From: a virus
Taxonomy: Duplodnaviria > Caudoviricetes
Reading direction: 5' to 3' (one strand)
DNA: 38,527 nucleotides
IMG/VR virus record: IMGVR_UViG_3300027826_000156
Span: 1 to 38,527 of that record
Shown: positions 7,778 through 38,527 of the stretch, piece by piece
Layout: each line of letters starts with the position of its first letter
How positions within the stretch are numbered: position 1 is the stretch's first letter
The notes under the pieces: generated by a model
What the model saw: only the letters and a program-made list of their open reading frames with translations
Database searches by the model: none
Told to the model about the DNA's origin: nothing
Position numbers and translations under genes: made by a program

Positions 7778-7858
7778 CGTAGGATGGGTAGCGCCGCAGC
7801 GCGTAACCCACCGAGCGGCATGGTGGGTTACGCCGCTTCGCGGCTAACCCACTCTACG
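7778..7858. repeat. GTAG-type REP doublet (REPIN-like)
   Basis: CGTAGGATGGGTAGC...GCGTAACCCACC / GGTGGGTTACGC...GCTAACCCACTCTACG: two inverted palindromic units with GTAG/CTAC ends, intergenic. Confidence 0.75.
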
Positions 7859-7866
7859 CAACAGCG

Positions 7867-9046: not shown

Positions 9047-9279
9047 TACCCGTGACTTTTCAGGACCCGATCACATGCCGGCGACACGTCGCTGCGATGC
9101 GCGCGGAAGCAGGCGTAGATGCCGCTGCGGTCGCCGAGCGCAGCCGCGGCGATTTCGGCGGCAGAGCACAGCCGGAAAACGTCCGGCTTGCAGGCCTGAC
9201 GCTCGGTTGAGGTCTGCGCAGCAGCATCAACTGCCGCGGCGAGCGTGGCGGCGAGAACGATCGCGAGAACGCGGTTCAT
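9043..9279 (-). CDS. Secreted cysteine-rich repeat protein
   Basis: Signal peptide then ACKPDVFRLC...IYACF...VSPAC four-Cys pattern; GGAGG RBS. Confidence 0.72.
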   Translation of the reverse strand: MNRVLAIVLAATLAAAVDAAAQTSTERQACKPDVFRLCSAAEIAAAALGDRSGIYACFRAHRSDVSPACDRVLKSHGY

Positions 9280-9673
9280 GAGGACCTCCGACGATTTGCA
9301 GAAAGACTCGCGCCAGGCCGCGGTTGCCGATGGCACGGCAGGCGCCGAGCGACAGATCGATGGCGCGATGCGTCCAGGCCGCCGGCCCGCGGTCGTTGAT
9401 GGTGACGGTTATGCAGCGCCGCGCGCTCGCGGCCGCCCCAGCCACCGCGCTAGCGCGCCGCGACCGATTGCAGACCAGAACGCGGGTGCCGAACGGCCAC
9501 GAGCGATGCGCCGCGGTCAGCCGCGACGGATCGTAGTTTTGGCCGGCGGCGGTGCGGACTTGATGGTGTTCGCGGCCGTAGCAGCTCGCCACGCCCGGTC
9601 GGCTGGCGGACAGACTTTCGGCACGCGCGGTCGCGAGTGCACAAAGCACCGCCACGGCGAGAAGCGCTCGCAT
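9227..9673 (-). CDS. RlpA-like double-psi beta-barrel lytic transglycosylase
   Basis: GVASCYG, TAAHRSWPFGTRVLV, VTINDRGP, RAIDLS motifs with signal peptide. Confidence 0.85.
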   Translation of the reverse strand: MRALLAVAVLCALATARAESLSASRPGVASCYGREHHQVRTAAGQNYDPSRLTAAHRSWPFGTRVLVCNRSRRASAVAGAAASARRCITVTINDRGPAAWTHRAIDLSLGACRAIGNRGLARVFLQIVGGPHEPRSRDRSRRHARRGS

Positions 9674-12797: not shown

Positions 12798-12882
12798 CAG
12801 CGCGTTTAATCAAATAATCGGCTCTTGACTTGACCTACCCTGCGGACCTGGAATGGCGCGGCGGCAAGGAAGAGGGGTTCAG

Positions 12883-13752
12883 ATGGCGTTGACGTTTTCC
12901 GACTTGGCCGAAGAGCCGTCGCCGCGCTTGCTGCCGCCGCTCGATCAAAGCGGCGTCGATGAGCGCGCGCTGACGCCGGCGCAGCGGGAATGGCGCCGCG
13001 ACGGCGTCGCGATCCTGCCGCGCTTCCTGCCCGATCGCCTGATGGATGCCTATGCGCGCCGGCGTGCGGCGTTCAACGCGCCCGGCGGCTGGCCCTCGCC
13101 GACGCCCTATCTCGACGTTCCGGAGATGCGTGAACTCGCCCTCTATCCGCCGCTCATGAAAGAAATGCAGGCTCTGGTCGGCGAGCCGATGTTTCTGCAC
13201 CTTTGCCTGACCGGCTGGGTCAGCACCGAGCGCGCCTGGCACCAGGACGACTATCTCAATCCGCCGCACGTCAACAGCTGGTATGCCGCCGTGTGGATGG
13301 CGCTCGATGACATCCATCCCGATTCCGGCCCGTTCGAGTACGTGCCCGGATCGCACCGCTGGCCGCTGATGCGCGGCAGCAAAGTGCGCAAACACATGCC
13401 ATGGCGCCAAGCGACACGGCCGGAGTGGCCGCAGCTCTCGGAAGTGTTTGTCGTTCCGGCGATCGACGCGGAGATCGTGCGCCGCGGCGCGGAGGTTCGA
13501 TCGTTCATCGCCAAACGCGGCGACGTGCTGATCTGGCACGGCCGCCTGCTGCATCGCGGCTCGAAGCCAAAACAGCCGGGCATGCTGCGCAAGTCGCTGA
13601 TCAGTCACTACTCGGGCGTCACCCACCGCGACGACATGCCGGCGCGGGCGCGCGACGCCAACGGCCAGCTTTATGCCGTGATCAAGCCGCACGGCGCGAT
13701 CCGGCGCAGCCTGGGCATATTGAAACGGCGCGTGACAGACGCGCTGCGATGA
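12883..13752 (+). CDS. Phytanoyl-CoA dioxygenase-like 2OG-Fe(II) oxygenase
   Basis: WHQD, VWMALDDI..DSGP..YVPGSH, GDVLIWHGRLLHRG (HxD...H triad). Confidence 0.88.
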   Translation: MALTFSDLAEEPSPRLLPPLDQSGVDERALTPAQREWRRDGVAILPRFLPDRLMDAYARRRAAFNAPGGWPSPTPYLDVPEMRELALYPPLMKEMQALVGEPMFLHLCLTGWVSTERAWHQDDYLNPPHVNSWYAAVWMALDDIHPDSGPFEYVPGSHRWPLMRGSKVRKHMPWRQATRPEWPQLSEVFVVPAIDAEIVRRGAEVRSFIAKRGDVLIWHGRLLHRGSKPKQPGMLRKSLISHYSGVTHRDDMPARARDANGQLYAVIKPHGAIRRSLGILKRRVTDALR

Positions 13753-14828
13753 CATCCATCGCGCCGATGCCGAAACAGGCAGTGCAGACCACGTTCCTGC
13801 AAAAGGTTCTGCTCGTCGTCGGTTCGGCCGCACTGATCTTGTCGATCATGGGCGCGGCCGAGCTTTATTGCCGCTGGTTCACCCGTATCAACTTTCTCGG
13901 CATCAGCCGCGGCATGTTCATCTCCCGGGCGTTCGGCGACAGCTATGGCAACAGGCCGGACTATCGCGGCGTGGCCTTCGGGGCCGCGGTGCAAACCGAC
14001 GCCAACGGCTTTCGCATCGATCCGACATTCCGCGGACCGACCGGGGGCGACGCGGTTCTGATCCTCGGCGATTCCGTCTCGTTTGGCGTGGGCGTAGACG
14101 CCTCGAAAACCGTTGCCGGTCTCCTGCAGCGCGCGATGCCGCAGGTTCGGTTCTATAATTCCTCGGCGATCGGGTACGGGCTGCACGATTATGAAAATGT
14201 GGCCGGCACGCTTCTGCCGCGAAAACCCGACATCAAGTCCGCCCTCTTGTTCTATTGTTTGAACGATATCTACGACACCAGCGCCCAGGAGATCGAGGCG
14301 ACGGTCCAAAAGATCGACGGCACCGGCGGTACGCCAAGTCCGTTTTCGTCGTTTCGGGCATTTGCGTTGGCGACCAACGGCTATTTGCGTTCGCGATCCA
14401 AACTTTACTTGTCCGTGAAAAAGGTTCTCACCGATCCATCCATGCGATATTTCAGGCAGGATTTTGCAGAATACCAGAAGCGGCTGTCGAACATCGGCGA
14501 CTCGCTGCGGCCGCTTCGCAACATTGCCCAGGAGCTGGCGGCCCGCGGCGTGAGCTTCGAGGTTTTGGTCATGCCCTACGAGGCGCAAGTGCGGACAAAG
14601 GACCAGAGCAGCTTTTTGCCGCAGACGCTGGTCGACGACTTCCTGCACCGGAACGGCATCGCCTATTACGATGCCGCGCCCGCCTTTCTGCAATCAGGAC
14701 TGCCGTCGCAAAGTCTTTATCTCTACGGCGATCCGATGCACCTCAGCGAGGCAGGCCATCGCCTTTCCTTTCAATTCGCCAACGCCGAACTGACGAAAAT
14801 GATGCAACACCGGGCGCCCGCGGACTAA
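13749..14828 (+). CDS. Membrane-anchored SGNH/GDSL hydrolase or acyltransferase
   Basis: N-terminal TM, N..GFR, LILGDSVSFG, LND, DPMH; ATGA overlap with the oxygenase gene. Confidence 0.82.
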   Translation: MTSIAPMPKQAVQTTFLQKVLLVVGSAALILSIMGAAELYCRWFTRINFLGISRGMFISRAFGDSYGNRPDYRGVAFGAAVQTDANGFRIDPTFRGPTGGDAVLILGDSVSFGVGVDASKTVAGLLQRAMPQVRFYNSSAIGYGLHDYENVAGTLLPRKPDIKSALLFYCLNDIYDTSAQEIEATVQKIDGTGGTPSPFSSFRAFALATNGYLRSRSKLYLSVKKVLTDPSMRYFRQDFAEYQKRLSNIGDSLRPLRNIAQELAARGVSFEVLVMPYEAQVRTKDQSSFLPQTLVDDFLHRNGIAYYDAAPAFLQSGLPSQSLYLYGDPMHLSEAGHRLSFQFANAELTKMMQHRAPAD

Positions 14829-14873
14829 GAAGCCGCGCGCCGGCGTCCGCCGACGCCCTGATGGATTAAAGGA

Positions 14874-15950
14874 TCACCGCTTCCGCTGTAAATTATTCTC
14901 GGTGACAAAATTCCGTACAAACGGCCAGACTGCGTCAGCCGTGAGCGCGGCACCAGCCGCATTGGGATGACCGTCGCCCGCTATCTCGTAGGCGGCACGA
15001 TTGTGCAGGATGGCCGGTAGAACATGTGGCGCGGCATCGAAAGCTGCAATTTGCTCCGAGGCAAGCAGGTCAGCCAACCACTCGTACGTTCTCCATCCGT
15101 TATTGATCACGGCAAGCTTTATGCCGCGCGCATCGCACCACGCTTTCATACGCCGGAACATCGCCCGTGCCAGCCGCTGTTGCTCGGCAGAGCTGTCGAT
15201 CGGCCCCAACTGCTCCGCCGCGGCAGCTTTGGCGGTGTAAGTGAGAAACAAAAGGTGAGTCCTCCTGATCAGCTGCGCCAAGTGCAGGTGCTCTATGGCG
15301 AAGTTGTATAGATCTGAAGTGACGACGGCTCTTCTCAGCGCGCCGATCGACACTCTGCCGGCGTCGAGGTCCAGCGTTTCTGCACTGCGCAAACGATAAA
15401 GCGGAGACCGCTGCGCCCTGTTGAAATCATCGATACTGACAAAAACGAATACCGCGGACGGTGCAATTTCGTCAGCAAAATCCTCCAGAAACGCCAGATG
15501 TTCTGCGGTGCCGCTGCCGGAAATGCCGGCATTCAACAACGCGATCCGCTCGGTTCCGAAGGCGGCATCGAGCTTTTCCTGCAGCCGCGCGATGTAGGTA
15601 TCTTGCTCCGGCAGACCGAAGCCGAATGTATACGAGTCGCCCAAAGCAAGAATGCGCGCGGCTCCCGGCGGCGGCGGATGCAATCGTCGCAGATGAGGCG
15701 AGACGAAGTGATAGATCCCTTTGTTTTCTCCAATGCTGAACAGCGCGGCGCCTTTGGATTTGGTGACCATGTAGCCACGCGGCGCATAGTCGAAGAAAAT
15801 TCCATTGATAGGCTGTGGCGCGAATAGGCGCACGGCAATCTCGGACAGAAGGAGACCTGCCGCGACAGAACATAAAATCAATACCAAATTGGCAATCCAG
15901 CCCTTCGCCCCGGACCGTCTCGACTTGTGGGCTAAAACGCCAGGCTGCAT
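14874..15950 (-). CDS. Membrane-anchored SGNH/GDSL hydrolase or acyltransferase
   Basis: N-terminal TM (LLLSEIAVR), LALGDSYTFG, NAGISG, DGHPN. Confidence 0.85.
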   Translation of the reverse strand: MQPGVLAHKSRRSGAKGWIANLVLILCSVAAGLLLSEIAVRLFAPQPINGIFFDYAPRGYMVTKSKGAALFSIGENKGIYHFVSPHLRRLHPPPPGAARILALGDSYTFGFGLPEQDTYIARLQEKLDAAFGTERIALLNAGISGSGTAEHLAFLEDFADEIAPSAVFVFVSIDDFNRAQRSPLYRLRSAETLDLDAGRVSIGALRRAVVTSDLYNFAIEHLHLAQLIRRTHLLFLTYTAKAAAAEQLGPIDSSAEQQRLARAMFRRMKAWCDARGIKLAVINNGWRTYEWLADLLASEQIAAFDAAPHVLPAILHNRAAYEIAGDGHPNAAGAALTADAVWPFVRNFVTENNLQRKR

Positions 15951-16208
15951 GAAAGGCACGCGTGCTTTTGCTTTTGACCGGCGACTCGGTGATAGCGGGA
16001 TGGCGGTTCCGTTCGAGCAGTACTTCGCCGGCCGGTTATACCGAGCAGATGTAGGAACGTAAATCGCCGCTCGGGTTTCTCAACGCGGCCGTCGCGCCGT
16101 GGCGGAGAATCGACCGGCCGGCGCGCAGATACCATGTGGTACTCTCGTCTCTGCGAGCACCGGAAAGCCATCATGTTCCGATCCGGTTGACTTCGCAGGC
16201 GCCACCGT

Positions 16209-17102
16209 GTGCAATCGGCGGCTGTGGAAGCCTATCTCTCAGACGAATTCCTCGATCGCGTGCGCCGCGCCTATCGACTCGCGCTAGACGCCGCCCCAAA
16301 GGCGCGCGGGCAATGGGCTTCGCACAATGCTCGCCGAGCCGACGTGCACATCGCGTTGCTCGCCGATGGCAACGACGCACTGCGACCGATTTTTGCTGAT
16401 CCGACGATTACCGATCTGTATTACGGCGCCGACGACTTATGCCGCACCGTCAACAAACTGAGAAACCCGTCCGATTTTGTGTGCGAGGCGCTAAGCCATC
16501 AGCGGGCTCGGATTGCTGCTTATCAGATTGCGCGCATTCGGGAGTTGGTTCCAGACGCGCGATCCGTGGTCGAGATTGGTCCCGGCATGGGCCGCTCCGC
16601 CTATTACGGGCACCTCGCGGGGTTAGATTACACAACAATCGATCTGCCGCTCGGCATCGTAGCTCAAGCTTGTTTCCTGGCGCGAGTGGTCGGCCCTGAT
16701 GCCCTTTGGTTTGCCGGCGAGGCAGAGGCCACAGCGGATGGCAAGATAAAGCTGCTTTATCGCGCGCCCGAACAGCGCTTCGATGTTGCGCTAAACGTCG
16801 ACTCGATCACTGAGATGCCGACGGCAACAGCTTTCGACTATTTTCGGTGGGCCGGCTTACACGCGCGCTGCTTGCTTTCGATCAATCACGAGAGGAACAG
16901 ATTCACCGTCGCGCAGCTGGCAAAGTTCTCCATTCCAGCAACAATCATCGCTAAAGGTCCCTGCCCGGCGTGGGACGGCTACAGCGAAGAGGTATTTTTA
17001 CCGCACGAGAGCGATTTGCTCCCGACCAGATTACGGCTTGCAGCTTTCGAAGCTTGCGTCATGGCTCATCGTGTACGGCGCCGGTTATTAAAAGGTTTTT
17101 AG
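16209..17102 (+). CDS. Putative sugar O-methyltransferase (class I SAM)
   Basis: VVEIGPGMGRSAYY, TIDLP, FDVALNVDSITEM, LSINHE. Start uncertain. Confidence 0.72.
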   Translation: MQSAAVEAYLSDEFLDRVRRAYRLALDAAPKARGQWASHNARRADVHIALLADGNDALRPIFADPTITDLYYGADDLCRTVNKLRNPSDFVCEALSHQRARIAAYQIARIRELVPDARSVVEIGPGMGRSAYYGHLAGLDYTTIDLPLGIVAQACFLARVVGPDALWFAGEAEATADGKIKLLYRAPEQRFDVALNVDSITEMPTATAFDYFRWAGLHARCLLSINHERNRFTVAQLAKFSIPATIIAKGPCPAWDGYSEEVFLPHESDLLPTRLRLAAFEACVMAHRVRRRLLKGF

Positions 17103-25913: not shown

Positions 25914-26170
25914 TTATCTGATGGCGCCGTTCGGAAACATGGCGAGCAGCTCGTGGAAATTGCTCGACGGCCGCGACGGCGGCTTGTAGCCCAGGTAAGC
26001 GGCAACGATGCGCCGCGCCGGCGGGCATTCAGTCCAGGCGCGGCGCAGCGCCTCGAGAAACGGCATGTCGACCTGGTCGAGGACCGCGTCGCGGGTCCAG
26101 CGCAATTCGATCACCAGCTCGGCGACGAGCGCGCGCCAGTCCGCGGTTTCGAAGCGCTCGTCGCCGTCTA
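25914..26170 (-). CDS. Tail assembly chaperone T (frameshift extension of G)
   Basis: The -1 frame is open from the slippery site (IDGDERFETADWRALVAELVIELRW...) to the stop at 25914. Confidence 0.75.
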
Positions 26171-26509
26171 TTCCCCCGCCTGGTCAGCCTCGATCCGCTT
26201 GCCGCCGGCCTGCTCGATGACGACCGGCAGCGCCGCCACCAGTTCGCCGATCGGGATCGGCAGATCGAAAAATTCCTCGCGCGTCAGCGAAGGATGGGCG
26301 CGGCGCAAACCGTGCCACACCACCTCAGCCAACGGCAACAACCGCTCGCCGCTCAGGTTTTCGACGGTGATGCCCGACAGCTTCGGCACGTGATCGGCGA
26401 TGGCGAGAATCTGCCGCAGCGACAGCGGCGCCACGTAAAACCCGCGCCCGGCAAGCGTGACCTGGCGCGCGGCGCCGCGGTCGAGATTTTGGTCCGGATC
26501 AAGGCTCAA
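26168..26509 (-). CDS. Tail assembly chaperone G
   Basis: 113 aa, TTG start after AGGAG, ends GCG GGG GAA TAG; upstream of the tape measure gene. Confidence 0.78.
   Translation of the reverse strand: MSLDPDQNLDRGAARQVTLAGRGFYVAPLSLRQILAIADHVPKLSGITVENLSGERLLPLAEVVWHGLRRAHPSLTREEFFDLPIPIGELVAALPVVIEQAGGKRIEADQAGE
26171..26177 (-). other. Programmed -1 ribosomal frameshift site G GGG GAA
   Basis: Heptamer immediately before the G stop codon; a -1 shift joins the T frame. Confidence 0.75.
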
Positions 26510-26674: not shown

Positions 26675-27142
26675 TCACTCTTTTCGGCTCAGCTCGTCCC
26701 TGATCGCCTGTAGCCGCGCGAGCGTAGCGGGCGATTCATTGTCATCCACAACGGCGCGCGCCTGAGCGGCGGTATAAAATTTCCAGTCCTCGCCGTCGAT
26801 GATTATGCCGTCGGTCGCTCGGATATAGGCAGTCGCAGCCATCCATGCCGCGATGAACTCATTCCACTTGCTGCCGAGCCAAGAGAACGCTAGCACGAAC
26901 CTCCACGGATGATCGATTCCTAAATCTGGATTCAGGGCAATGATCTCGCTGGAATCTTCATGATAACATTCAAATCCCGTCAATTCGCCACGGAGATGCA
27001 TCGGGAAAAAGCCGCAAATCCACGGGCGTGTCGGCCCCGCCCCTGTCTTCGCTCGGAGTTCAGCAGCTCTCGCAGGAGTTAGGCCACTCTTTCCAGTCTT
27101 TACATCATATATCGCAATAATCGCACCATTCCTATCCCGCAA
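26675..27142 (-). pseudogene. Fused remnant: toxin tip fragment plus C-terminal part of an immunity-like gene
   Basis: RDRNGAIIAIYDVKTG...AELRAKTGAG (D-x-K nuclease-like) runs abruptly into an unrelated aromatic/acidic segment GFFPMHLRGELTGFEC...; no good RBS. Confidence 0.5.
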
Positions 27143-27159: not shown

Positions 27160-27618
27160 TCAGTCGACTAGTTTTCCGCGCCTAGCGCCCTCATAGGCGA
27201 GGTCCTGATATTTCTTCGGAAAATATTGCCGCTGCAGATCATCAACAATTTCATCCGGTCGAATCGAAATGCCCATATTAGGCCAATCTTCGTGGCCTCG
27301 TGTCGTGACCATGAGATCAATTTGCCATCCCGGAAAGTCTTTGACTAGTCCTTGGAGAGCATCCACTACCGGCTTGCGCAGCAGTTCCAGATTGTCAACA
27401 AATACAACAACCTGCGGATACTCACTGTAATCGTCGTGGACATGATAATCGCCATACGGCTGTCCTGGCTGAAAGTCAGGCCGTCCGAAGCGCTCAAGCA
27501 ACTTATCAACACGATTTTCCAGGCGCTCGAATACGGCAAGCTGTTCAGTCTGGCGACGATCGTATTCGTCTCGTCTCATCGAGTCCATGTCGCGTCGAGT
27601 TATTGTGTTGTTACTCAT
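27160..27618 (-). CDS. Orphan immunity protein (paralogue of 29422-29886)
   Basis: Near-identical 5' sequence to 29422-29886; shared FPGWQID and DDLQRQYFPK.YQDL.YEG motifs. Confidence 0.75.
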   Translation of the reverse strand: MSNNTITRRDMDSMRRDEYDRRQTEQLAVFERLENRVDKLLERFGRPDFQPGQPYGDYHVHDDYSEYPQVVVFVDNLELLRKPVVDALQGLVKDFPGWQIDLMVTTRGHEDWPNMGISIRPDEIVDDLQRQYFPKKYQDLAYEGARRGKLVD

Positions 27619-27640
27619 CACCGACCCACAGTGACTTGTA

Positions 27641-28072
27641 TTAATCGTGTGCGGTTCGCGGCAAGCCCCCCTCGTATTGAATGTCTTGAAACTCTTTCGG
27701 GAAGTATTGCCGCTGTAAGCCGTCAATAATCCGATCCGCCAGAATACGCACATTCATTTCCGGCCATTCCCTTAAATGATCCCACAATACTACCCTCAGA
27801 TCGATTTCCCAACCTGGGAACCCTTTGAGAAGCTGCTGAAGGGCAAACACGATAGCCGGCCGCAGCATTTTTAGGGTACTTATGAAAACTACTACCTCTG
27901 GGCTGTCGTTATAATCTCCGTGGACAGAGTAGTCCCCATAACGCTTTCCGGACAGGAAGTTCGGTTGGCCAAACCGCGCAAGCAAGTCACCGACACCTTT
28001 GTACAGGCGCTCAAAGGTTTCGAGAGGATCGCCATCGTGACCGTTCGTTTGAGCATTCGCTTCATTCCTCAT
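27641..28072 (-). CDS. Immunity protein for the second portal-cassette tip
   Basis: Same family (FERL...LL.RFG.P, YGDY..HGDY, FPGWEID, LQRQYFPKEFQDIQYEG); overlaps stop of the tip. Confidence 0.75.
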   Translation of the reverse strand: MRNEANAQTNGHDGDPLETFERLYKGVGDLLARFGQPNFLSGKRYGDYSVHGDYNDSPEVVVFISTLKMLRPAIVFALQQLLKGFPGWEIDLRVVLWDHLREWPEMNVRILADRIIDGLQRQYFPKEFQDIQYEGGLPRTAHD

Positions 28073-28372
28073 CGCCACGCCCTCGTCCTATGCCATAAAC
28101 GTTGATATAGCGAAGCCGCTCGCGAATGATCTTCATTCTGAGACCGCTGATTCGCGGGTCTCTTGACACCCTAACCTCAGCAACTATTTCCTGCGCGTGT
28201 TCTGCCGTCATCTCCGCGGGCGAAATCTTATTTTTCTTTAAATAGTTTTCGAATAGTTCGTCAACTGCCTGATTGTACTCAATGTGTTCTGCATTGTTTA
28301 CGTTTACCTTAGGATCAGCAAGCGCGCCAGACCTCGCTTTGTCGAATATTTCTCTTGCTTCCTTGGTAACGT
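28062..28372 (-). pseudogene. Alternative toxin tip of second portal cassette, out of frame and lacking the GHH motif
   Basis: SGALADPKVN...EH.EYNQAVDEL...MTAEHAQE...DPRI aligns to the tip of 29879-31897 but is in a different frame from the upstream portal fragment. Confidence 0.75.
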
Positions 28373-29358
28373 ACAGGAGGCTTTGGTGCGTCGGACGTTT
28401 CATCCGAATCGTCCGACGCTGCAATCTGTGTCCATTCTCCTCCACCTGTATCGTGCTTGGGAACGCGTGGTTCTTCTGGGTTGTAACCATACTTGTTGAG
28501 CAGCAGTGAAAGTTCCCCGATGAGGGCCTGTTCCGCTGATTCGAGCGTCGGTGTCGGAGCCGACTTTTTAGTCTTTGGTACTCTGCTATTATCGACGTTT
28601 AGGGGCGAGGACTCCCCACCCGCACCCGCCTCGATCGGCACGTAGCCGGTGGCGGTGAGCACCATCGGCCGGTCGGCGGCGGGATTTTGGAACGCCTCGA
28701 GGCCGAGCGCGTCGCGCAGTTCGTTGAGCGTCGCGGCGCCGATTTTTACGCGGGCTTCGAGCGCCGCCTCGGCTTGCGCAGCTCCGGTATCCTCGTCGAG
28801 CCAGGCGAGCTCCAGGTCGGGCGAGGCGAACTCGTCGGCGATCACCTCGTCGATCAGGTCCTTGACCCACTCCTTGGTCGGCTCGAGCCCCTCGTCCTCG
28901 GCCTGCGCCGACTGATTGTCGGCGGTGGCGCGGTTCATCAGCTTCACCGCCCATTGCGGCGGCACCGAAAACGCGTAGCAGATGATGCGCGCGAGCCACT
29001 CGTCGAAGTCCTGCTTGTGCTCCGGCTCCTTGGTCTGGTGCACCTTCACCGCGCTCTCGCCCGGCACGAACTTGGCGCGCCGGCGCTTTGCGAGGTCCCC
29101 GGCGAACTCGATGTCCCAGTAATCCTGGAACTGCCGGATCTGGTCCGGCGTCCAGCCCGCCGGTACCCCGATCAGCGCGTCCGGGATCGAGCCTTCGGAA
29201 AAGTAATCGAGCTGCCAGAGCTGGCGGCGCAGCGTGATGTTGACCATCATCAGCACCTGCTGCACCGGCGAATAACCGTAGACCCAGTGAGCGCGCACGT
29301 TGCGCGGCCGATAGACGATGTCGCGCACGGCATAGTCGACCGCCGGCAGGCCTTTCAG
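28315..29358 (-). pseudogene. 5'-truncated portal fragment with alternative linker (orphan cassette)
   Basis: Begins mid-domain at LKGLPAVDY; nearly identical to the full portal up to VPIEA.AGGE, then diverges. Confidence 0.85.
28612..29358. repeat. 747-bp direct repeat, copy 1 (portal 3' part)
   Basis: Matches 30455-31201 at a constant offset of 1843 at both ends; scattered substitutions. Confidence 0.9.
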
Positions 29359-29421
29359 AGACTGTTGTTAGAGACTGCCGCGAAGCAACCTTTTAAGATA
29401 TTCGGATGGATGCGGCACGCA

Positions 29422-29886
29422 CTACCAGTCGACTAGTTTTCCTCGCCTCGCGCCCTCATAGGTGAGGTCCTGGTACTCCTTAGGGAAATATTGCCGCTGC
29501 AGGTCATCGACAATTTCGTCGGCGCGAATCGAGATGCCCATATCGGGCCAATCTTCGTGCCCTCGTGTTGTCACTGCAAGGTCAATTTGCCATCCTGGAA
29601 AATCTTTGACCAGTTCTTGGAGAGCGTTCACAACGGGCGTGCGCAAGAGCTTTAGATTGTCGACAAAGACACCAACTATCGGATACTCGTTATAATCGCC
29701 GTTGAGATGGTAGTCACCATAAGGTTGCCCCGGGAGATAATCAGGCCGACCAAAGCGCTCAAGCAGCTTCTCAACTCGATCTTGCAGGCGCTCGAACACG
29801 GCAAACTGTTCAGTCTGGCGACGATCGTATTCGTCTCGACTCATCGAGTCCATGTCGCGTCGAGTTATTGTGTTGTTATTATTCAC
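29422..29886 (-). CDS. Immunity protein cognate to the portal-fused toxin (unassigned family)
   Basis: GTG start overlapping the portal stop; small, acidic, AT-richer; two paralogues downstream. Confidence 0.78.
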   Translation of the reverse strand: MNNNNTITRRDMDSMSRDEYDRRQTEQFAVFERLQDRVEKLLERFGRPDYLPGQPYGDYHLNGDYNEYPIVGVFVDNLKLLRTPVVNALQELVKDFPGWQIDLAVTTRGHEDWPDMGISIRADEIVDDLQRQYFPKEYQDLTYEGARRGKLVDW

Positions 29887-31897
29887 CACCTCTGCCTCCT
29901 CGTCGCCAGGGACCATAACGCCATATATATCTCGATCTCTCACGCTTAATCTTCGCGTTAAAATCACGAATCCTAGGGTCAGTTGAATTTTCAATCTCTC
30001 GCAAAACTTCCTGTGCGTGTTCAATGGTCATTTGTTCTTCTGTAATATTTTTTCTTTTAAGGTACTTGTCAAGGAGCTCGTTGAGCGCATCATCATACTG
30101 CCTATGTTCTTTGGTATTATAATTTACACTTGGATCAGCAAGAGCCCCCGAAAGGGAATCATCGAAAAACTCCTTTACTGCATCTGAGAAATTTCTTTTC
30201 GTGAAAATCTTTTTTGTCATCCAGTGGTGACCTTTGGCGTATGGCTGGTAAGGTATTACCGCGTGATCGAGCGTGTCCCACGGTTCTGATGTGGGCGCCG
30301 CGTCTTTGGGCCGGAACTGGCCGCCTTTGCGGTCTGGAGTGCCAGCAGGCCAGCCTGGATGCTTTGGATCGTCCGGACTCGCTTTGGCAACAACTGTCGT
30401 GCGACCGCCCGCATCACCACCGTGCACGCCCGGGTTGGATGCTTCATTGGTCCCCTCCCCACCCGCATTCGCTTCGATCGGCACGTAGCCGGTGGCGGTG
30501 AGCACCATCGGCCGGTCGGCAGCGGGATTTTGGAACGGGGCGAGGCCGAGCGCGTCGCGCAACTCGTTGAGCGTCGCGGCGCCGATCTTGACCCGCGCTT
30601 CGAGCGCCGCCTCGGCTTGCGCGGCGCCGGTGTCCTCGTCGAGCCAGGCCAGCTCCAGGTCGGGCGAGCCGAACTCGTCGGCGATCACCTCGTCGACCAG
30701 GTCCTTGACCCACTCCTTGGTCGGCTCCAGCCCCTCCTCTTCGGCCTGCGCCGACTGATTGTCGGCGGTGGCGCGGTTCATCAGCTTCACCGCCCATTGC
30801 GGCGGCACCGAAAACGCGTAGCAGATGATGCGCGCGAGCCACTCGTCGAAGTCCTGCTTGTGCTCCGGCTCCTTGGTCTGGTGCACCTTCACCGCGCTCT
30901 CGCCCGGCACGAACTTGGCGCGCCGGCGCTTTGCGAGGTCGCCGGCGAACTCGGTGTCCCAGTAATCCTGGAACTGCCGGATCTGGTCCGGCGTCCAGCC
31001 CGCCGACACGCCGATCAGCGCGTCCGGGATCGAGCCTTCGGAGAAATAATCGAGCTGCCAGAGCTGGCGGCGCAGCGCGATGTTGACCGTCATCAGCACC
31101 TGCTGCACCGGCGAGTAGCCGTAGACCCGGTGGGCGCGCACGTTGCGCGGCCGATAGATGATGTCGCGCACCGCGTAGTCGACCGCCGGCAGTCCTTTGA
31201 GCACCTGCTGGTAGGCCGGCGGATAGATCGTGCTGCCGTCGGGCGCGGCGTAGGGCTGCGGCGTGCGGCCCCAATCATCGATGACGCGCTTGATGGTGGC
31301 GCCGTCGAGCTGATGCAGCGCGCACAGCTGCCCGGCGCGGGTGCGCCGGCAATACAGCGTTGCCGCGTCGATGACGAACATGTCCTCGAGCAGCGCGCGC
31401 AGCCAGGTCTTCCAGCGCGTGACGCCATCGGGCTTTTGCCAGAATTTTTCGATGGCGGCGATGCGCGCGCCGGTGTCGACGGCAAGCGCGGCGGACTTGC
31501 GGCTCCCCCCTTCCCTGCCCCGCGCGCGGGCGAGCGACGGCAGCGGGCCGCGTGGTCGGATGCACCAGCGCTGCCGCTCCATCTGGTCCTTGCGGGTCTC
31601 GATGACGAGGCGCAAGAGATCGTAGGCGTCGGCAAAACCGCGCAGCTCGGCAAAGCCGATCGGCTCGTAGGCGCGCGGCCGGACCGAGAGATTGTAGCCC
31701 GGCGGAAAATCGAAGCGCCGCCCGGCGACTTCGGGCGGCGCGATCGGCCGCAGCGGATCGAGCGGGCCGAACCAGTCGGCGCCGCCGCCGCGCGCAATGC
31801 CGGCGCCGGTGCCCGCGGCGGTGCCGTACGACACGGCAATCTGATACGGCGACAACGGCCAGTTTGGCTGGCCGGCGCCGCGGCTCGGCTCGGTCAT
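29879..31897 (-). CDS. Phage portal protein fused to a C-terminal HH/HNH-like putative toxin domain
   Basis: Portal motifs (LRLVIETRKDQ, LLEDMFVIDA, LDGATIK, YGYSPVQQ, YFSEGSIPD, ICYAFSVPP, TLNELR..LGL.P), then linker and AT-richer tip GHHW...NYN..EHRQY. Confidence 0.85.
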   Translation of the reverse strand: MTEPSRGAGQPNWPLSPYQIAVSYGTAAGTGAGIARGGGADWFGPLDPLRPIAPPEVAGRRFDFPPGYNLSVRPRAYEPIGFAELRGFADAYDLLRLVIETRKDQMERQRWCIRPRGPLPSLARARGREGGSRKSAALAVDTGARIAAIEKFWQKPDGVTRWKTWLRALLEDMFVIDAATLYCRRTRAGQLCALHQLDGATIKRVIDDWGRTPQPYAAPDGSTIYPPAYQQVLKGLPAVDYAVRDIIYRPRNVRAHRVYGYSPVQQVLMTVNIALRRQLWQLDYFSEGSIPDALIGVSAGWTPDQIRQFQDYWDTEFAGDLAKRRRAKFVPGESAVKVHQTKEPEHKQDFDEWLARIICYAFSVPPQWAVKLMNRATADNQSAQAEEEGLEPTKEWVKDLVDEVIADEFGSPDLELAWLDEDTGAAQAEAALEARVKIGAATLNELRDALGLAPFQNPAADRPMVLTATGYVPIEANAGGEGTNEASNPGVHGGDAGGRTTVVAKASPDDPKHPGWPAGTPDRKGGQFRPKDAAPTSEPWDTLDHAVIPYQPYAKGHHWMTKKIFTKRNFSDAVKEFFDDSLSGALADPSVNYNTKEHRQYDDALNELLDKYLKRKNITEEQMTIEHAQEVLREIENSTDPRIRDFNAKIKRERSRYIWRYGPWRRGGRGGE
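30455..31201. repeat. 747-bp direct repeat, copy 2 (portal 3' part)
   Basis: Matches 28612-29358. Confidence 0.9.
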
Positions 31898-31970: not shown

Positions 31971-32720
31971 TTACTCGGTCAGACTGATGCTGCCGATGTT
32001 GTTGGCGCCGTCGGCGATGGCCTGGAAATCCAACTCGGCCACCGTGAATTTCTGATTGGAGAACGGCAGCGCCAGTTTCGGAGCGACGCAGGCGTTGAGC
32101 TTGACCACGATGTCCTTGTTGACGCCGAAATAATTGAACGTCTCCTTCAGCGACACTTCGAACAGCGGCACCGGGCCCATCAGCTGATTGGCGAGCGCGA
32201 TCTTGTTGCCGGAGGCGACGCTGTAACTATAGTAGATCACCACCGCCGCGCCGTTGTCGCCGGCATTGAACGTATAGGTGCCCGGGCTGCCCGACGGCGC
32301 AATGTACTGGCCCTGCGTCGGCGAAGCGGCGACCGGCACGAGCTGCGCGCCGGTCGTGGCATAGAACACGCCGAAATCCTCGAGGAACGTCGCGCCGTTG
32401 GCCACGATGACGGCCGCCGCAGTGACGGTGTCGGTCTCGCCGGTGGTCATCTCGATCATGCTGTTGGCGGTGAGCGTCTGGCCGAGGAACAGATTGTTGA
32501 TCTGCGACGCCTGCAGGCGCGCGAACTTGGCCTTGCCGGCGATCTTGAACTCGCCGCCGCCGGCCGCGACCGGCATGTTGTACTGGCCGACCAACAGCTC
32601 GATCTTGCGGTCGAAATCGAGCGTGACGTCCTGCAAGGTGCCGAGCAGCGCCGGTGGCGTGCCGGTCACGTCGGTGCGCTTGCCAACCAAGGTGCCGCTG
32701 CCGAAAGCGAATTGGGTCAT
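31971..32720 (-). CDS. Major tail (tube) protein
   Basis: FAFGSG.L, LGTLQDVTLDF, L.GQY..PVA, I.GKAKFA, C-terminal F...ELDFQA; follows the tail completion gene; AGGAG RBS. Confidence 0.75.
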   Translation of the reverse strand: MTQFAFGSGTLVGKRTDVTGTPPALLGTLQDVTLDFDRKIELLVGQYNMPVAAGGGEFKIAGKAKFARLQASQINNLFLGQTLTANSMIEMTTGETDTVTAAAVIVANGATFLEDFGVFYATTGAQLVPVAASPTQGQYIAPSGSPGTYTFNAGDNGAAVVIYYSYSVASGNKIALANQLMGPVPLFEVSLKETFNYFGVNKDIVVKLNACVAPKLALPFSNQKFTVAELDFQAIADGANNIGSISLTE

Positions 32721-33505: not shown

Positions 33506-33952
33506 TTATATATCTCTACCCATCTGAGACAACCCCACCCTTAAAGCAGCCGGGTCAAAGTCTTCCCAGGAGACTAAATTGCTGGGCTCTCCCGTCTGAA
33601 GAAAATAAAATAAGATCGCCTTCAGCTCATCGAAGTGAATGATGTAGCGTGCCGGGGTTGGCGTCGGCGTATCGGCAGTGAGAAACTCAACGCAGCCGCG
33701 CTGCAGAGGGGGTTGTGCCGACATTGCCATGAGATACGGCGGATTGCCATCGGAGGAACTGTATTGAGCACAACAAAATCGTTCACCGATCCCTGTCAAG
33801 ATTTCGAATCCGTTATCTCCTTTCAGCTTGGCAATAAAAGGCGGCTTACGTTTCGTCTCGTCAAGCAACTCGGCAAGTTGTTCGCTCGCAGCGACAACGG
33901 CGCCGTGCATCGGATCGAGCTTGTCCTGGTGATTGAAGTATTGAATTCTCAT
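33506..33952 (-). CDS. Imm1-family (DddI-like) immunity protein
   Basis: ATGA overlap with deaminase toxin; C-terminal EF...TPT...ARY.I...EL......F.QTGE....V.WE pattern of Imm1. Confidence 0.8.
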   Translation of the reverse strand: MRIQYFNHQDKLDPMHGAVVAASEQLAELLDETKRKPPFIAKLKGDNGFEILTGIGERFCCAQYSSSDGNPPYLMAMSAQPPLQRGCVEFLTADTPTPTPARYIIHFDELKAILFYFLQTGEPSNLVSWEDFDPAALRVGLSQMGRDI

Positions 33953-35010
33953 TGTCGTTCGCCTTTGAAAGGCACCCTTTGACCGTTCGGCAATATGACA
34001 TACAAGACACCGCCGGGAGGAACCATACTTTTCAGTTGATTGTTGCACTGGTCGCATATTTCGGGATTGTTGATCTCCACCGACGCCTCCGAAATGCCGT
34101 ACAGCCGCATTATTGCCGCTGCTTGGGCCTCCACGTGAGATCGAACGTTTCCATCAAAGCCAGGCGTTCCTTTTGGTATTGCTGCTGTTGGCCCGTCATA
34201 CCCGCTCTGCAGTTCTATCGGCGTCATCCCTGGCGCCCGGAAGATACCGGAAGTTTTGCCGCCAGGCTCGTATGGTGCGAGCTGCGGCTCTGATTGGCTC
34301 ATGAATGGCAACTTCGATTTCGGATCAGGAGGACTCCAAGTTGGCCGCGCTCCCTGGGGAGCTGCTGGCCTAGCCGGCGCTGGCGCCGGTGCTGGTGGCA
34401 GCAGTCTCGGAATGCCCCCGCCGGGGAAAGGCAACTCAGCCCCTCCTGGAGGACCTGCACCGCCACCGGGAGCGGCCGGCTTTTTTCCCCATGGCCAAAA
34501 CCAAGGCGGTCGACGCTCCGCAACGGGTATGACGGGGATCGCTTCGGTCCTATCTGATTCCGGTGCGAACCAGCCGGGATTGGGCGGCGCGCCGGTGCGC
34601 GGATGCTTTGCGGGATCCCTGAATTTGAGCAGCCGGCTGCGGTGCAGCTCGAGCGCGCGGCGGCCAATGTCTTCGTCGGCCTCTCTGCCCGTCGTCAGCG
34701 GCGGGTCGGGAAACTGCATCTGCACGGTGGCAATCGCGGCCATCGCCAGATCGCCGCGATTGAAGGCCGCCGCGATGAGGGCGAGCGAGGCAGCTTTCGC
34801 GGCAACATCGATTGGCAGACCGTATTGCGTCGACAGGTCTTCGTTGAGTTCGGGTATTGCGCGAACGACCCATTGCCTTGTCGCGCCGGTGCCAACGGCT
34901 TGCAGCAACGGGACATCGCCGACGAACGCACCGGTGACGCCGCACGACACGGCGCTGCTGGCGCGCTCCGCGGCCAGCGAAAAGGCACGCGCACCCGGCA
35001 TCGCAAACAT
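33949..35010 (-). CDS. Polymorphic toxin with DddA-like (SCP1.201) cytidine deaminase tip
   Basis: GKTSGIF...LQSG...HVEAQAAAIMR..GISEASV.INNPEICDQC...MVPPG..L.V..P.G (HxE + CxxC). Confidence 0.88.
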   Translation of the reverse strand: MFAMPGARAFSLAAERASSAVSCGVTGAFVGDVPLLQAVGTGATRQWVVRAIPELNEDLSTQYGLPIDVAAKAASLALIAAAFNRGDLAMAAIATVQMQFPDPPLTTGREADEDIGRRALELHRSRLLKFRDPAKHPRTGAPPNPGWFAPESDRTEAIPVIPVAERRPPWFWPWGKKPAAPGGGAGPPGGAELPFPGGGIPRLLPPAPAPAPARPAAPQGARPTWSPPDPKSKLPFMSQSEPQLAPYEPGGKTSGIFRAPGMTPIELQSGYDGPTAAIPKGTPGFDGNVRSHVEAQAAAIMRLYGISEASVEINNPEICDQCNNQLKSMVPPGGVLYVILPNGQRVPFKGERQ

Positions 35011-35024: not shown

Positions 35025-35275
35025 CTAGTTGATGACGTGAAGAGCGTCGATTCGACAGCGCTTAGGGGTCGCTCCGGCTAAGGCGTCGCTAGCGCGCAGT
35101 GCTGCCGCGTTGACGGCGCGGGCGCACGCTGTAGTGCCCCCCAGTTAGCAAGGTGGGCGAGCAGCTGCGTCGTCGCTATATCGATCCCAAGCGAAGGCCG
35201 AAGTGCACTCGCCCATTCTGAGGAAAATATCGCAGGTCACCGCTGGCCGGGTGCCGTTGGGCAAATCCCATGCCG

Positions 35276-35817
35276 CTACGATACCTTCAGATCGTGCTCA
35301 GTAGGCGTAGACGCACTGAGCGCCAGTCTGCCGCCTCTTCGAGCGAAATCGAGCGCCTCGGGTCCTAAGAAAAACGCGCCAAGCCTCTTAAAGCTCTGCC
35401 GAAACGGCCTTGTGAAAAATTCGTAAAGATCCTTAGACATGGGACTGTCAGAGATCGTTCCAATCGTTCCATACAAAATGATATCGTCTCAATACCGGCC
35501 ACCCGGGCCGAAAACAATCGTGTCCTGATTGAGCAACTGACTAATCGAGTAAAGAATGCCGCCGCGCCGCTGAGGAACGTCTTCCACGCACACGGTCGCG
35601 CCTTCCGGCGAAACAAGATATGCGGGGTTCGCTATCGACGTTGGATGCAGCGCTGTCCCGAAGTCCGGGATATCGACATAGGACCGATGAGTTTGGGCGC
35701 GTTCGTCTCGAATAAACCGGTCCGGGTGTATTGCAGCTTCCTCTGCATCTCCAGCGATGAAAGCAGCGGGCGCAGATCGGTAGCTGTCGCATAAAACATA
35801 ATGAGCCTGCGAGTCAT
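35276..35817 (-). pseudogene. Immunity paralogue of 36608-37150, disrupted
   Basis: One-base deletion near 35696 and in-frame TGA at 35489-35491 relative to the intact copy. Confidence 0.82.
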
Positions 35818-35940
35818 CGGGTGCGCCTTTTCGGAATCAGGATCAGCGTATCGTTCGGATATTTGGCGCGAATCCTGGCGACCGCAGCAGCCTTTCTCGG
35901 TGTCGGGCTTCCGTCGGCAAGCATATCGATTGCTTCAACG
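35814..35940 (-). pseudogene. Orphan toxin C-terminal fragment
   Basis: Translates as VEAIDMLADGSPTPRKAAAVARIRAKYPNDTLILIPKRRTR*, matching the end of 37147-38184. Confidence 0.82.
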
Positions 35941-36001
35941 CCGCTCGCGAGTCCGTGCAGCGTTTCATGCGTCCAGGGTCAACAACACCGTCGCGGCATT
36001 G

Positions 36002-36541
36002 TCACACCTTGAAATCAAATTCCGAAGGGCTTGATGCCGCGGCTGTGAGTCTAAAACCAGCCTTCCCGAGCTGCAATGCCTCAGGTCCCACAAAGAACTC
36101 CTCGACCCTATCAAAATGCTCGCGAAGCGCTTTGAGCATAGACTTATAGAGGCTTATGGAAGCCGCTGTGTCGGATATGGTGCCGATCATTCCATCCAAG
36201 ATGATGTCGCTGCCGTAGCGACCGCCAGGCCAGAGGGCGACGGTGTCCTCGTTTAGCTGTTGATCAAAGGCAAAGCGATGTTTACCAGTGTTTTGAATGA
36301 TCCGACGAGCGCGTATTGGGGTTCCACGCAGCGATACGAGGTACGATGGATTTGCAATGGCCGTCGGATGGCTTGCCACTCCGAAGTTTGGGATTTTCGT
36401 ATACGATCCATAGGTCCGAGGCTTGTTCGTTTCGAACTGCCCCGTCTGTGTATATTCGAGCTCTTTCTGACTTTCCAGCGTGGATAGGACAAGAGCAAGG
36501 TCCTTCGCTGTCGCGTAAAACATACTTTGGTTTCGGGTCAT
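36002..36541 (-). CDS. Immunity paralogue (divergent, intact)
   Basis: MFYAT..DL...LS.LE, IP.FG.A.HPT.IAN, DQ.LNEDT, F..GPEAL motifs shared with 36608-37150. Confidence 0.78.
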   Translation of the reverse strand: MTRNQSMFYATAKDLALVLSTLESQKELEYTQTGQFETNKPRTYGSYTKIPNFGVASHPTAIANPSYLVSLRGTPIRARRIIQNTGKHRFAFDQQLNEDTVALWPGGRYGSDIILDGMIGTISDTAASISLYKSMLKALREHFDRVEEFFVGPEALQLGKAGFRLTAAASSPSEFDFKV

Positions 36542-36607: not shown

Positions 36608-37150
36608 CTACGATACCTTCAGATCGTGCTCAGTAGGCGTAGACGCACTGAGGGCCAGTCTGCCGCCTCTTCGAGCGAAATCGAGCGCCTCGGGCCCTAG
36701 GAGAAACTCGTCAGTCCTCTTAAAATTTTCTCGAAATGGCCTTGTGAAAAAATTGTAAAGACCTTTGGACATGGAGCTGTCATAGACCGTTCCAATCCTT
36801 CCATACAAAAGAATATTGTTTCCATGGCGGCCTCCTGGGCCAAAAACAATCGTGTCCTCATTGAGCAATTGATCAATCGCGTAATAGACGCCGCCCCGTC
36901 GCTGAGGAACGTCTCTAATACACAGCGTCGCGCCTCGCGGCGAAACAAGATATTCGGAGTTCGCTATCGACGTTGGATGCCGCGCTATTCCGAAATCCGG
37001 AATATCGACATAGGACAGATAAGTTTGTGGCGTGCTCGTCTCGAATAAACCGGCCAGGGTGTATTGCAGGTTCCTCTCTATCTCCAGCGATGAAAGCAGC
37101 GGGCCTAGATCGGCAGCTGTCGCATAAAACATAATGAGATTGCGCGTCAT
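36608..37150 (-). CDS. Immunity protein cognate to 37147-38184 (unassigned family)
   Basis: ATGA overlap with toxin stop; AT-richer; two paralogues downstream. Confidence 0.8.
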   Translation of the reverse strand: MTRNLIMFYATAADLGPLLSSLEIERNLQYTLAGLFETSTPQTYLSYVDIPDFGIARHPTSIANSEYLVSPRGATLCIRDVPQRRGGVYYAIDQLLNEDTIVFGPGGRHGNNILLYGRIGTVYDSSMSKGLYNFFTRPFRENFKRTDEFLLGPEALDFARRGGRLALSASTPTEHDLKVS

Positions 37151-38184
37151 GGGGAGCGCCTTTTCGGAATCAGGATCAGTGTATCGTTCGGATATTTGGC
37201 GCTAATCCTGGCGGCCGCAGCAGCCTCTCTCGGTGTTGGGCTGCCGTCAGCAAGCGTATCGACTGTTTGAACGCGTGTCACCGCACCAGTCTCTGGGTTG
37301 ACGGCGGTGACGTCAACATATGTTCCCCCGAGACCACGGGGCCCGGGACCTCGAATGTATTCTTCAGGTTTCTGGCCGCCACCTCCAGTGATTTTATATC
37401 CCTGGGCCTCAAGGTCTGCTGCTATCGCGGCGTTCTGCGCGCGGGTTGCTGCACCTCCAAGTCGGCCGCCGCTGCGCGGAGCCGTTCCAAGCTCGGGTTC
37501 AGGAGAGGGGCCCGCTGGAGCTGCTGGCTTAGGTGGCGCTTCGACCGGCAGTCGTGCGACTTCACCTGGAAGTTCTGGTGGACCGCTACTACCAAACCCC
37601 CCGCCCCCGCCCCTGCCGCCACCTTCGACGATAGGGGGCCTCTTGAATGGATCGCCAACCATCGCTGCCGGTAGAGCGGTGATCGATTCCGGCCCGGTGG
37701 GAACTGGCCTCTCGGATTCTCCCGACTCTGGGGCGAACCAGCCGGGATTGGGCGGCGTGCCGGTGCGTGGATGTTTTTCCGGGTCCCAGAATTTGAGCAG
37801 CCGGCTGCGGTGCAGCTCGAGCGCGCGGCGGGCAATTTCATCGTCGGTTTCCCTGCCCTTCGCGAGCGGCGGCGGGTCCGGAAACTGCATCTGCACGGTG
37901 GCAATCGCGGCCATCGCGAGATCGCCGCGATTGAACGCTGCGGCTATCAGCGCTAGCGCGTTCGCTTTCGCAGCGACGTCGATGGGCAGGCCGTATTGGG
38001 TCGACAGTTCGTCGTTGAGCTCGGGTACCGTGCGAACGACCCATTGCGGGTTCGCGCTCGCGCCATCGATGGCCTGCAGCAGCGGAACGTCGCCGACGAA
38101 CACACCATCGGCGCCGCATGAGACGGCATCGCTGGAGCGCTCCGCGGCCAGCGAAAAGGCACGCAAACCCGGCATCGCAAACAT
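37147..38184 (-). CDS. Polymorphic toxin with unassigned, possibly restriction-endonuclease-like tip
   Basis: N-terminal ~150 aa nearly identical to 33949-35010; Pro/Gly linker; tip GGRLG..ATRAQN...GGGG..PEEY...YVDVTA...VQTVD...PRE. Confidence 0.8.
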   Translation of the reverse strand: MFAMPGLRAFSLAAERSSDAVSCGADGVFVGDVPLLQAIDGASANPQWVVRTVPELNDELSTQYGLPIDVAAKANALALIAAAFNRGDLAMAAIATVQMQFPDPPPLAKGRETDDEIARRALELHRSRLLKFWDPEKHPRTGTPPNPGWFAPESGESERPVPTGPESITALPAAMVGDPFKRPPIVEGGGRGGGGGFGSSGPPELPGEVARLPVEAPPKPAAPAGPSPEPELGTAPRSGGRLGGAATRAQNAAIAADLEAQGYKITGGGGQKPEEYIRGPGPRGLGGTYVDVTAVNPETGAVTRVQTVDTLADGSPTPREAAAAARISAKYPNDTLILIPKRRSP

Positions 38185-38198: not shown

Positions 38199-38347
38199 TT
38201 CGCTTGTTGATGTGATGAGCGAGGACGCGACGGCGTTTACAGCGTCGCTCCGGCTATGACGTTGCCGGCGCGCAGTGTTGCCGGCGTTGACGGTCTGCAA
38301 CGCGCACGCCATGGTGCGCCCGCTTTCGAAAGCTACGGAACTTCGGC

Positions 38348-38527
38348 GTGAAGGACTTCGTCAAAAAACTCGAATATCGCACCATAAAACCGGCGCTGCG
38401 CGCGCTGCAGCCGTGGCGCTATGTGACCTACGGCGGCATCCGCGTGCACCACAAGCGCTATCTCGACGGCGGCGGCAGCGCGTTCGGCCAGGACTACGTC
38501 CCGTTCCTGCACGATTGCGGCATGCCC
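38348..38527 (+). CDS. 5' part of a gene running off the window, possibly a methyltransferase
   Basis: Open frame from GTG 38348: KDFVKKLEYRTIKP...YGGIRVHHKRYLDGGGSAFGQDYVPFL; high-GC codon usage; not in the ORF track because it is truncated. Confidence 0.5.
   Translation, partial: MKDFVKKLEYRTIKPALRALQPWRYVTYGGIRVHHKRYLDGGGSAFGQDYVPFLHDCGMP

Follow-up and report, generated by a model that had tools for sequence, protein, structure and literature searches.

A phage-type portal protein with a swappable, predicted nuclease tip, a likely immunity gene and spare cassettes in an element with relatives in soil Xanthobacteraceae

Why should the portal protein of a phage-like element end in what looks like a nuclease, and what could such a protein be used for? 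We address this question for a block at positions 29,422 to 31,897 of the virus record IMGVR_UViG_3300027826_000156, the whole 38,527 bases of which were analysed (G000, hereafter the window). The reading that we favour, and consider moderately probable, is that the portal carries a swappable tip, predicted to be a DNase, together with a likely immunity gene and spare cassettes, and that the tip is loaded into the head, cut free and ejected into a rival cell. The block comprises the following features.

29879..31897, minus strand: portal-toxin fusion gene (P0001), 672 aa, from the open reading frame (ORF) call, PF04860 above cut-off and PHROG 2662.
30473..31897, minus strand: complete portal core, residues 1-475; the core end aligns to the phage 812 portal crown.
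30305..30385, minus strand: Lys504 (V-A-K) and HPGW-type conserved motif, a predicted prohead-protease site and tag with a putative role in cleavage.
29882..30232, minus strand: tip domain from GHH onward, a predicted AHH-like His-metal-finger nuclease by motif, alignment and model.
29422..29886, minus strand: likely cognate immunity gene of about 154 aa that overlaps the stop codon of the portal gene.

The fusion gene opens with an ATG at 31897 and closes with a stop at 29879. Pfam Phage_portal (PF04860) spans residues 155-451 with 57.9 bits against a cut-off of 39.1, PHROG 2662 (portal) matches residues 58-581 (E 2e-66), and the N-terminus aligns to full-length homologues, showing that the core is complete. 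The score against the HK97-type portal model TIGR01537 is 24 bits, below the equivalog cut-off of 112. A profile built from 20 portal cores matches 8q7d from phage 812 (E 8.5e-10; profile 106-442 against chain 123-468), one match in the profile search and the nearest solved portal. No MuF domain (PF04233 or PF06152) was found in P0001 at E up to 0.5, whereas the portals P0390 and that of phage Polewnik, the latter 49% identical in the core, do match PF04233. About 80 residues separate the portal core and the tip, the linker at residues 474-520 is 21% Gly, and the G+C content changes from 0.70 in the core to 0.42 in the tip and 0.51 in the small gene downstream. The initial annotation had described a complete portal domain, a Gly-rich linker with a shared motif, an AT-richer tip reading GHH...N...H..Y and an overlapping small acidic gene; each of these was recovered here, the limits it gave (portal ATG at 31897, end of the small ORF at 29422) proved exact, and related motifs preceded by Lys occur in five ORFs of the window.

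The tip is basic (isoelectric point, pI, 9.3) and carries G556-H557-H558, N592, H598 and Y601. Its relatives among 50%-identity representatives number 341 (E at most 0.001). In an alignment of 125 sequences, 121-123 rows keep H557, H558, H598 and Y601, N or H occupies position 592 throughout, and position 602, D in the window tip, is mostly N. Set against the Tox-AHH signature, given as [AG]HH, N, H, H, Y in the available part of the Zhang 2012 table (PMC3482391), the family conserves GHH, one N-or-H position, H and Y, and one of the five elements is absent. Pfam AHH (PF14412) gives weak matches in 17 members of the alignment (best E 0.0011), and Atlas neighbours of the tip at 0.90-0.92 carry Tox-SHH (30%), AHH (99%) or GHH2 (25%). 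The same tip family terminates a 2016-aa Rhs protein (P0387). The model of the tip, with a predicted local distance difference test score (pLDDT) of 91, has short strands at 11/13 (HH) and 36/38 followed by the helix bearing H598, the layout expected of a His-metal finger. Foldseek against the PDB (best E 3.4), a VIA wide fold search (best Z 4.2, root mean square deviation (rmsd) 7.4, 74 aligned) and a viral structure library (best E 0.92) gave nothing clear for the tip; a BART-like match in a PDB sequence profile search was at chance level and was dropped. We therefore describe the tip as a predicted DNase that resembles the AHH family and belongs to a subfamily without a name: the AHH/GHH-type assignment made earlier draws on the motif and on weak AHH-family matches and finds no echo in the fold searches. 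Two observations count against it, namely that the window tip itself has no PF14412 match and that Atlas flags its own top family for the tip as probably wrong.

The small gene behind the tip most likely starts at GTG 29886, 8 nt behind AGGAGG, and encodes an acidic protein (pI 4.7) with 149 relatives. Its family is unnamed in Pfam, PHROGs and NCBIfam, and a VIA fold search gave no match (best Z 5.3, rmsd 3.6, 96 aligned); that tip and immunity families are both unassigned, as had been stated, remains the case. A model of the tip-partner complex scored 0.83 and the best control 0.00, a mark reached by 116 of 157 solved complexes as against 2 of 215 mismatched pairs. At least 85% of the contacts are shared between runs, the partner pLDDT is 89 or higher, and the modelled interface covers H557, H558, N592 and H598, the predicted active site; the invariant Asp63 of the partner contacts both His residues of GHH and N592. 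The binding to the downstream protein that the initial annotation had proposed to model is favoured, and the model supports a partner that binds the tip over its active site.

Are such tips exchanged as units together with their partners? Portal homologues were surveyed as the best 120, query included, and only tips of at least 60 aa were clustered. The motif is present in 89, absent in 26, and the anchor pattern is missing in 5. The 82 tips long enough fall into 14 clusters: 31 belong to a family that we take, from its motif, to be restriction-nuclease-like, 12 to the GHH family of the window, 9 are small and Cys-rich, 8 HNH-like, 6 RNase Sa-like, 5 CdiA-CT RNases and 11 others, the RNase Sa-like and CdiA-CT RNase tips carrying Pfam names. 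The C-termini are, as suspected, highly variable. Pairing was counted over the window and loci L001-L105, with duplicate contigs included and one edge case left out for GHH. Here the partner lies directly behind the GHH tip in 44/44 cases; the restriction-nuclease-like tips are followed by their cognate gene in 40/45, RNase Sa tips by barstar in 11/11, CdiA RNase tips by their partner in 14/17, small Cys-rich tips in 8/8 and HNH tips in 7/7. A downstream gene family of its own goes with each of six tip families; two more (6 and 4 cases) have partners outside the compared partner set. Fourteen of the 58 copies of the window's partner family stand without a tip in front.

Portal fragments with motif and tip trail the main gene, 37 of them against 29 motif-bearing full portals in the fetched loci. 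In the window, the stretch behind the immunity gene reads as follows.

28315..29361, minus strand: spare cassette 1, in which the C-terminal half of the portal is repeated (241 residues at 94% aa identity) and the portal N-terminus is missing.
28062..28370, minus strand: remainder of the spare cassette tip, of the main tip's family (45% identity), in another frame, GHH absent.
27641..28078, minus strand: second immunity-family gene, 56% identical to the first.
27160..27621, minus strand: third immunity-family gene, with 85% identity to the first and not immediately preceded by a toxin.
26675..27142, minus strand: further cassette remnant, a restriction-nuclease-like tip end fused in frame to part of its usual partner.

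Two spare cassettes in the window are broken. The first retains a Lys-PRVP-type motif at 28494-28432 and loses its frame ahead of the tip, where a contig from run X4 has about 60 extra bases. Three near-identical contig pairs (98.8-100%) differ in the tip on the full portal, in two by cassette loss (L057/L059, L056/L058) and in one by a permuted order (L073/L075). As read from the sequences, these loci present the traits of polymorphic toxins: a conserved carrier with variable tips, a downstream cognate gene, and cassettes of carrier sequence. The portal-toxin-immunity reading of the initial annotation, which had overlooked the spare cassettes, is supported, and we regard it as very probable that this is a real, well-supported polymorphic toxin-immunity locus.

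How could the tip leave its carrier? In counts of sequences related by descent, and so of non-independent events, a Lys stands at most 9 residues (almost always 6-8) ahead of the motif in 87 of the 89 motif-bearing portals, and V, L, F or I stands two residues before that Lys in 83 of the 87, against 28-29% for other Lys residues of the same tails. The Lys is present in 62 of 69 non-portal carriers of the GHH tip family; the window's three further toxin genes with the motif have it too, and it precedes most of the related motifs found in 37 of 120 longer phage-type portal(-MuF) proteins (P0390-P0509). In relatives, the gene after the cassettes gives a weak XkdF / head maturation protease match, and the scaffold part of this XkdF-like protease has several L-x-K sites. 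The likely capsid gene comes next, and L/F-x-K ends its leader in 42 of 44 distinct sequences; since a PDB sequence search gave no match for it (nor for the protease), the name "capsid protein" is given by position (PHROG 13692, unknown function). From the recurrence of hydrophobic-x-Lys in portal tails, likely capsid leader and protease we infer that the prohead protease is Lys-specific and cuts the tips off inside the head. A precedent for processing of this kind is the SPN3US prohead protease, which, according to the available parts of PMC10052503 and PMC5694885, cuts its portal and ejection proteins, there after Glu. Release of the tips by Lys cleavage and their ejection seem to us a shade better than an even proposition.

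Loading is the firmer step. The phage 812 portal crown, residues 437-507, sits inside the capsid in the account given in the available text of PMC12886913, so that the extension of P0001 would grow from the inner face of the portal, and because portal C-termini face the prohead interior in known portal structure, no separate targeting protein would be needed. C-terminal GFP fusions of the T4 portal lie within the capsid, and up to about half of the ring can bear them (PMC3012670, in the part available). We consider it likely that the tips are head-loaded. Up to twelve toxins at the exit channel had been envisaged; twelve parked tips are probably not the mature state, because the conserved Lys site suggests cutting and the T4 ring tolerates fusions on only about half of its positions.

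Taken as a sequence of events, the proposal would run as follows. In the producer cell the co-translated acidic partner is predicted to cover the active site of the tip. The portal ring would start the prohead with its C-termini inside, and up to twelve tips would be loaded. The XkdF-like prohead protease would cut after hydrophobic-x-Lys, a site at which it probably also cleaves the capsid leader and its own scaffold, and the cut would leave the Pro/Gly/Trp motif at the new N-terminus of the toxin, perhaps as an ejection tag. The toxin would exit through the tail with the DNA, and cells lacking the matching immunity gene would die. Recombination of the portal gene with the portal fragments of spare cassettes would swap the tip.

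What kind of element carries this gene? Close relatives are found in metagenome-assembled genomes (MAGs) of uncultured soil Xanthobacteraceae / Alphaproteobacteria and in IMG/VR contigs. Their gene order runs from aspS through repressor, GcrA-like, DUF6362, cold-shock and terminase genes to the portal-toxin gene with its cassettes, and on through protease, likely capsid, neck, tail, GTA-like baseplate and lysis genes to a last toxin cassette. The control region holds CI-like repressor, GcrA-like, DUF6362 and cold-shock genes; no replication gene was recognised there in the two loci examined. Of the 19 genome loci with enough sequence, 18 have aspS to the left of the repressor, at a DNA divergence of 16-21%, and the right-flank genes are common to five genomes. 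Neither a tyrosine integrase (PF00589) nor a large serine recombinase (PF07508) was found within the element in 5/5 genomes, the nearest PF00589 in G002 lying about 11 kb past the right flank, and in 4 of the 5 the element is the sole PF04860 locus. The particle gene set is complete with lysis genes. The element is likely a domesticated phage-like particle. In G002 a second tail-like/lysis-like gene block lies between the element and the usual right flank (L112 8700 to L113 12000).

The window itself departs from this order, and its portal block has these neighbours.

31971..32720, minus strand: upstream neighbour, tail-tube-like by position (PHROG 8234, unknown function).
26168..26509, minus strand: downstream neighbour, tail-chaperone-like by its position before the tape-measure gene (PHROG 7947, unknown function).

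These two genes bring us to a set of observations that weigh against a loaded and ejected toxin and most of which speak for the leading alternative, an ordinary prophage in decay. There the fusion would be left over from a portal-MuF-effector design for host takeover, the remnant would be trapped by aspS, and the window copy would enter no head. The portal block sits between the tail-tube-like and chaperone-like genes in the window and in 0/47 related loci (those holding both genes, out of 54 fetched), relatives having the portal within the head module (terminase-portal-protease), and the terminase, protease and capsid genes are off the window contig. The initial annotation, right on the gene structure of the block, had overlooked this tail-region placement away from the head genes. 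Longer phage relatives of the portal, such as that of Brevundimonas phage Polewnik, are mostly portal-MuF(-effector) fusions; most of P0390-P0509 carry PF04233, with PF06414/PF13671, PF03496 or PBECR as extra domains. Broken portals are found: the frame ends before residue 400 in 5 of 24 genome loci (a count that leaves out four long frames missed by the anchor pattern), 2 of the 24 stop 8 residues past the portal core, and tails are shorter than 60 aa in 18 of the best 120 homologues. Head modules are deleted, as in L170, where aspS, repressor and DUF6362 abut a partial tail-tube-like gene. Presence, judged in incomplete MAGs, is patchy, with the element in 34 of 151 sampled genomes of the genus and 5 close matches among the 401 genomes of the family sample. 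Mantel tests on 14 loci show no significant correlation between the distances of aspS and those of element genes (rho 0.06-0.17), although each of the four trees contains the same two shallow clades. Two further points concern parts of the favoured reading: the permuted order in L073/L075 could be misassembly across repeats, and for Lys-specific cleavage by related phage proteases, taken here as background, literature searches gave no usable text.

We nevertheless consider decay of an ordinary prophage unlikely, since the same site is kept in the aspS-sited loci despite their divergence, intact toxin-partner pairs of many families are maintained and reshuffled, and the main gene of the window is intact. 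The tail-region placement is not simply an assembly error, because contigs from runs of two studies (X1, X2) bridge the tube-portal junction; a contig from a public run of another study (X4) spans the portal-tip junction. X1 and X4 also hold contigs covering the protease, capsid and neck genes of a relative locus at a depth like that of the window contigs, a weak hint, to which other organisms may contribute, that the window organism has these genes. A search for an upstream extension of the window contig gave only L122, itself inside the window. In L003 (19450-20508) an opposite-strand nucleotidyltransferase gene (PF12281) fills the slot between tube and chaperone genes where the window has its portal block, and L025 has an opposite-strand Tle1-like phospholipase gene in the neck region (12104-13240).

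A second alternative places the toxin at the service of its producer. The protease of an invading related phage, or incorporation of the portal into the heads of that phage, would free the toxin, so that infection is aborted or the progeny poisoned; or the toxin-partner pairs would make loss of the element lethal. Because 37 of the 120 phage-type portal(-MuF) proteins share the Lys-plus-motif, phage proteases could recognise the tip site, and toxin-partner pairs are spread over the whole element. Against this stand the retention of a complete particle gene set with lysis genes and the combination of toxin-less immunity genes (14/58) with spare cassettes, a pattern of between-strain competition in the available parts of PMC3482391 and PMC11699363. 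We regard defence or self-maintenance as improbable, and rather more so than decay. Least probable of all, by a small step, is a tip that is loaded and never cut, the Lys-motif serving only to anchor recombination or as a tag that binds DNA or scaffold, and the tip acting on packaged DNA or reaching its target otherwise: the termini of the phage 812 crown are charged and may touch DNA (PMC12886913, available text), but the Lys and its hydrophobic neighbour are conserved over unrelated carriers, motif types and the likely capsid leader, a tethered toxin would be unable to reach the target cytoplasm, and an RNase or lysozyme-like tip would have no evident use within the head.

How does a head-loaded, cleaved portal tip compare with known systems? 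The closest are the MuF polymorphic toxins (Zhang 2012, PMC3482391; Jamet 2017, PMC5576092; Bxa and Apk2, PMC11699363), in which, in the available parts of these papers, a C-terminal toxin sits on a head-module protein beside an adjacent immunity gene, head loading and injection with the DNA are proposed, and delivery is still hypothetical. Unlike these, P0001 lacks a MuF domain, and it is the portal that serves as carrier, with 12 copies per head as against 1-2 for SPP1 gp7; the element lies at a fixed chromosomal site without an integrase, and portal-fragment cassette arrays, present here, are not mentioned in the available text of Jamet 2017 (PMC5576092). Fusions of portal or portal-MuF to effectors (PBECR, 2H, Nudix, ART; Iyer 2017, PMC5512222; PMC9503650) use the same portal subfamily as P0001, and the available parts of these sources predict that such portal-fused enzymes are packaged and injected. 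They read them, however, as host-takeover or counter-defence proteins, and no immunity genes, cassettes, Lys site or motif are described in those parts. The system works like MuF phage-head toxins and portal-effector fusions, yet is not a member of the MuF family.

Rhs and CdiA C-terminal displacement arrays resemble the locus in their silent cassettes of carrier piece, tip and immunity gene, and tip families are shared (P0387; PF18431), whereas the carrier there is a secretion-system or surface protein and here a virion structural protein. With gene transfer agents (GTAs) of the RcGTA type the element shares a fixed site, the lack of an integrase, and DUF2460, baseplate hub and Rcc01698-like tail genes, and one relative has a GTA TIM-barrel gene; the head genes, by contrast, are of another lineage, with phage 812 as the nearest solved portal and a score under the HK97-portal cut-off. 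The DNA in known GTA particles comes from the host. Tailocins, which have no head, kill by perforation (PMC5576092, in the part available). Literature searches for the system or the motif gave no description; subscription papers lie outside their coverage, as do the supplementary files of the Zhang 2012, Jamet 2017 and Iyer 2017 papers, in which such proteins may be listed. What is new here is that the portal directly carries the polymorphic tips, accompanied by immunity genes and displacement arrays; the Lys-plus-motif junction and the location at a fixed site lacking an integrase are new as well.

More tentatively, and with less than even confidence, we suggest that soil Xanthobacteraceae have domesticated a phage as a headed bacteriocin, in which the portal would be a twelve-slot nuclease magazine, other small carriers would add toxins, the prohead protease would release them all at a shared hydrophobic-x-Lys site, and a Pro-Arg/Gly-Gly-Trp tag would sort them for ejection. 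This would be a phage-derived weapon that uses the head and not the tail, in an abundant uncultured soil lineage. If true, phage heads of Alphaproteobacteria would have in this tag a general ejection signal not described before, and a tag that routes proteins into and out of the capsid would interest phage-assembly specialists. Loading and injection of phage-head polymorphic toxins have been open since 2012-2017, and the present system, with fixed stoichiometry, predicted cut site, tag and partner, gives a sharp test. Several unnamed toxin-immunity families are gained as well.

Other toxin genes were found in the window and its relatives. Two genes of the minus strand (37147-38184 and 33949-35010) have a common, unnamed 130-aa N-terminal domain and a Lys-preceded motif, and differ in their tips, one of which is DddA-like (PF14428) with an Imm1-like neighbour; in relatives this 130-aa-domain carrier stands directly after the neck gene. 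Between them, at 35035-36036 (minus strand), lies a degenerate second copy of the 37147-38184 toxin's end and of the partner gene of that toxin, interrupted by stop codons and broken reading frames. Positions 1-4969 (minus strand) hold an end-of-element cassette with an unnamed carrier bearing Lys-motif and tip, two Imm52 genes and a HEAT-repeat gene, an arrangement that recurs in G001. Stand-alone genes with a short helical N-terminus, Lys-motif and toxin tip occur in L005, L006, L051, L057, L062, L073, L080 and others, adjoining cold-shock, terminase and capsid genes, and 65 motif ORFs have no carrier in the compared carrier set; it is possible that these stand-alone toxins are loaded into the head as well. 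The modules of motif and tip that lie close to terminase, protease and capsid genes had been considered as in-frame fusions to those proteins; this was rejected, as they are separate genes.

The remaining observations concern the rest of the window. At 38275-38527 an opposite-strand ORF (plus strand) stands where relatives have the neck gene, with no Pfam match in the 60 residues scanned. Lysis-type genes on the minus strand (5821-9673) encode a GH25 muramidase, a DPBB lytic transglycosylase-like protein and a class 3 lipase. The tail-fibre region (11793-17102) carries as cargo a family 2 glycosyltransferase, a PhyH dioxygenase and two SGNH/GDSL-like genes, for which surface-glycan modification is a possible function.

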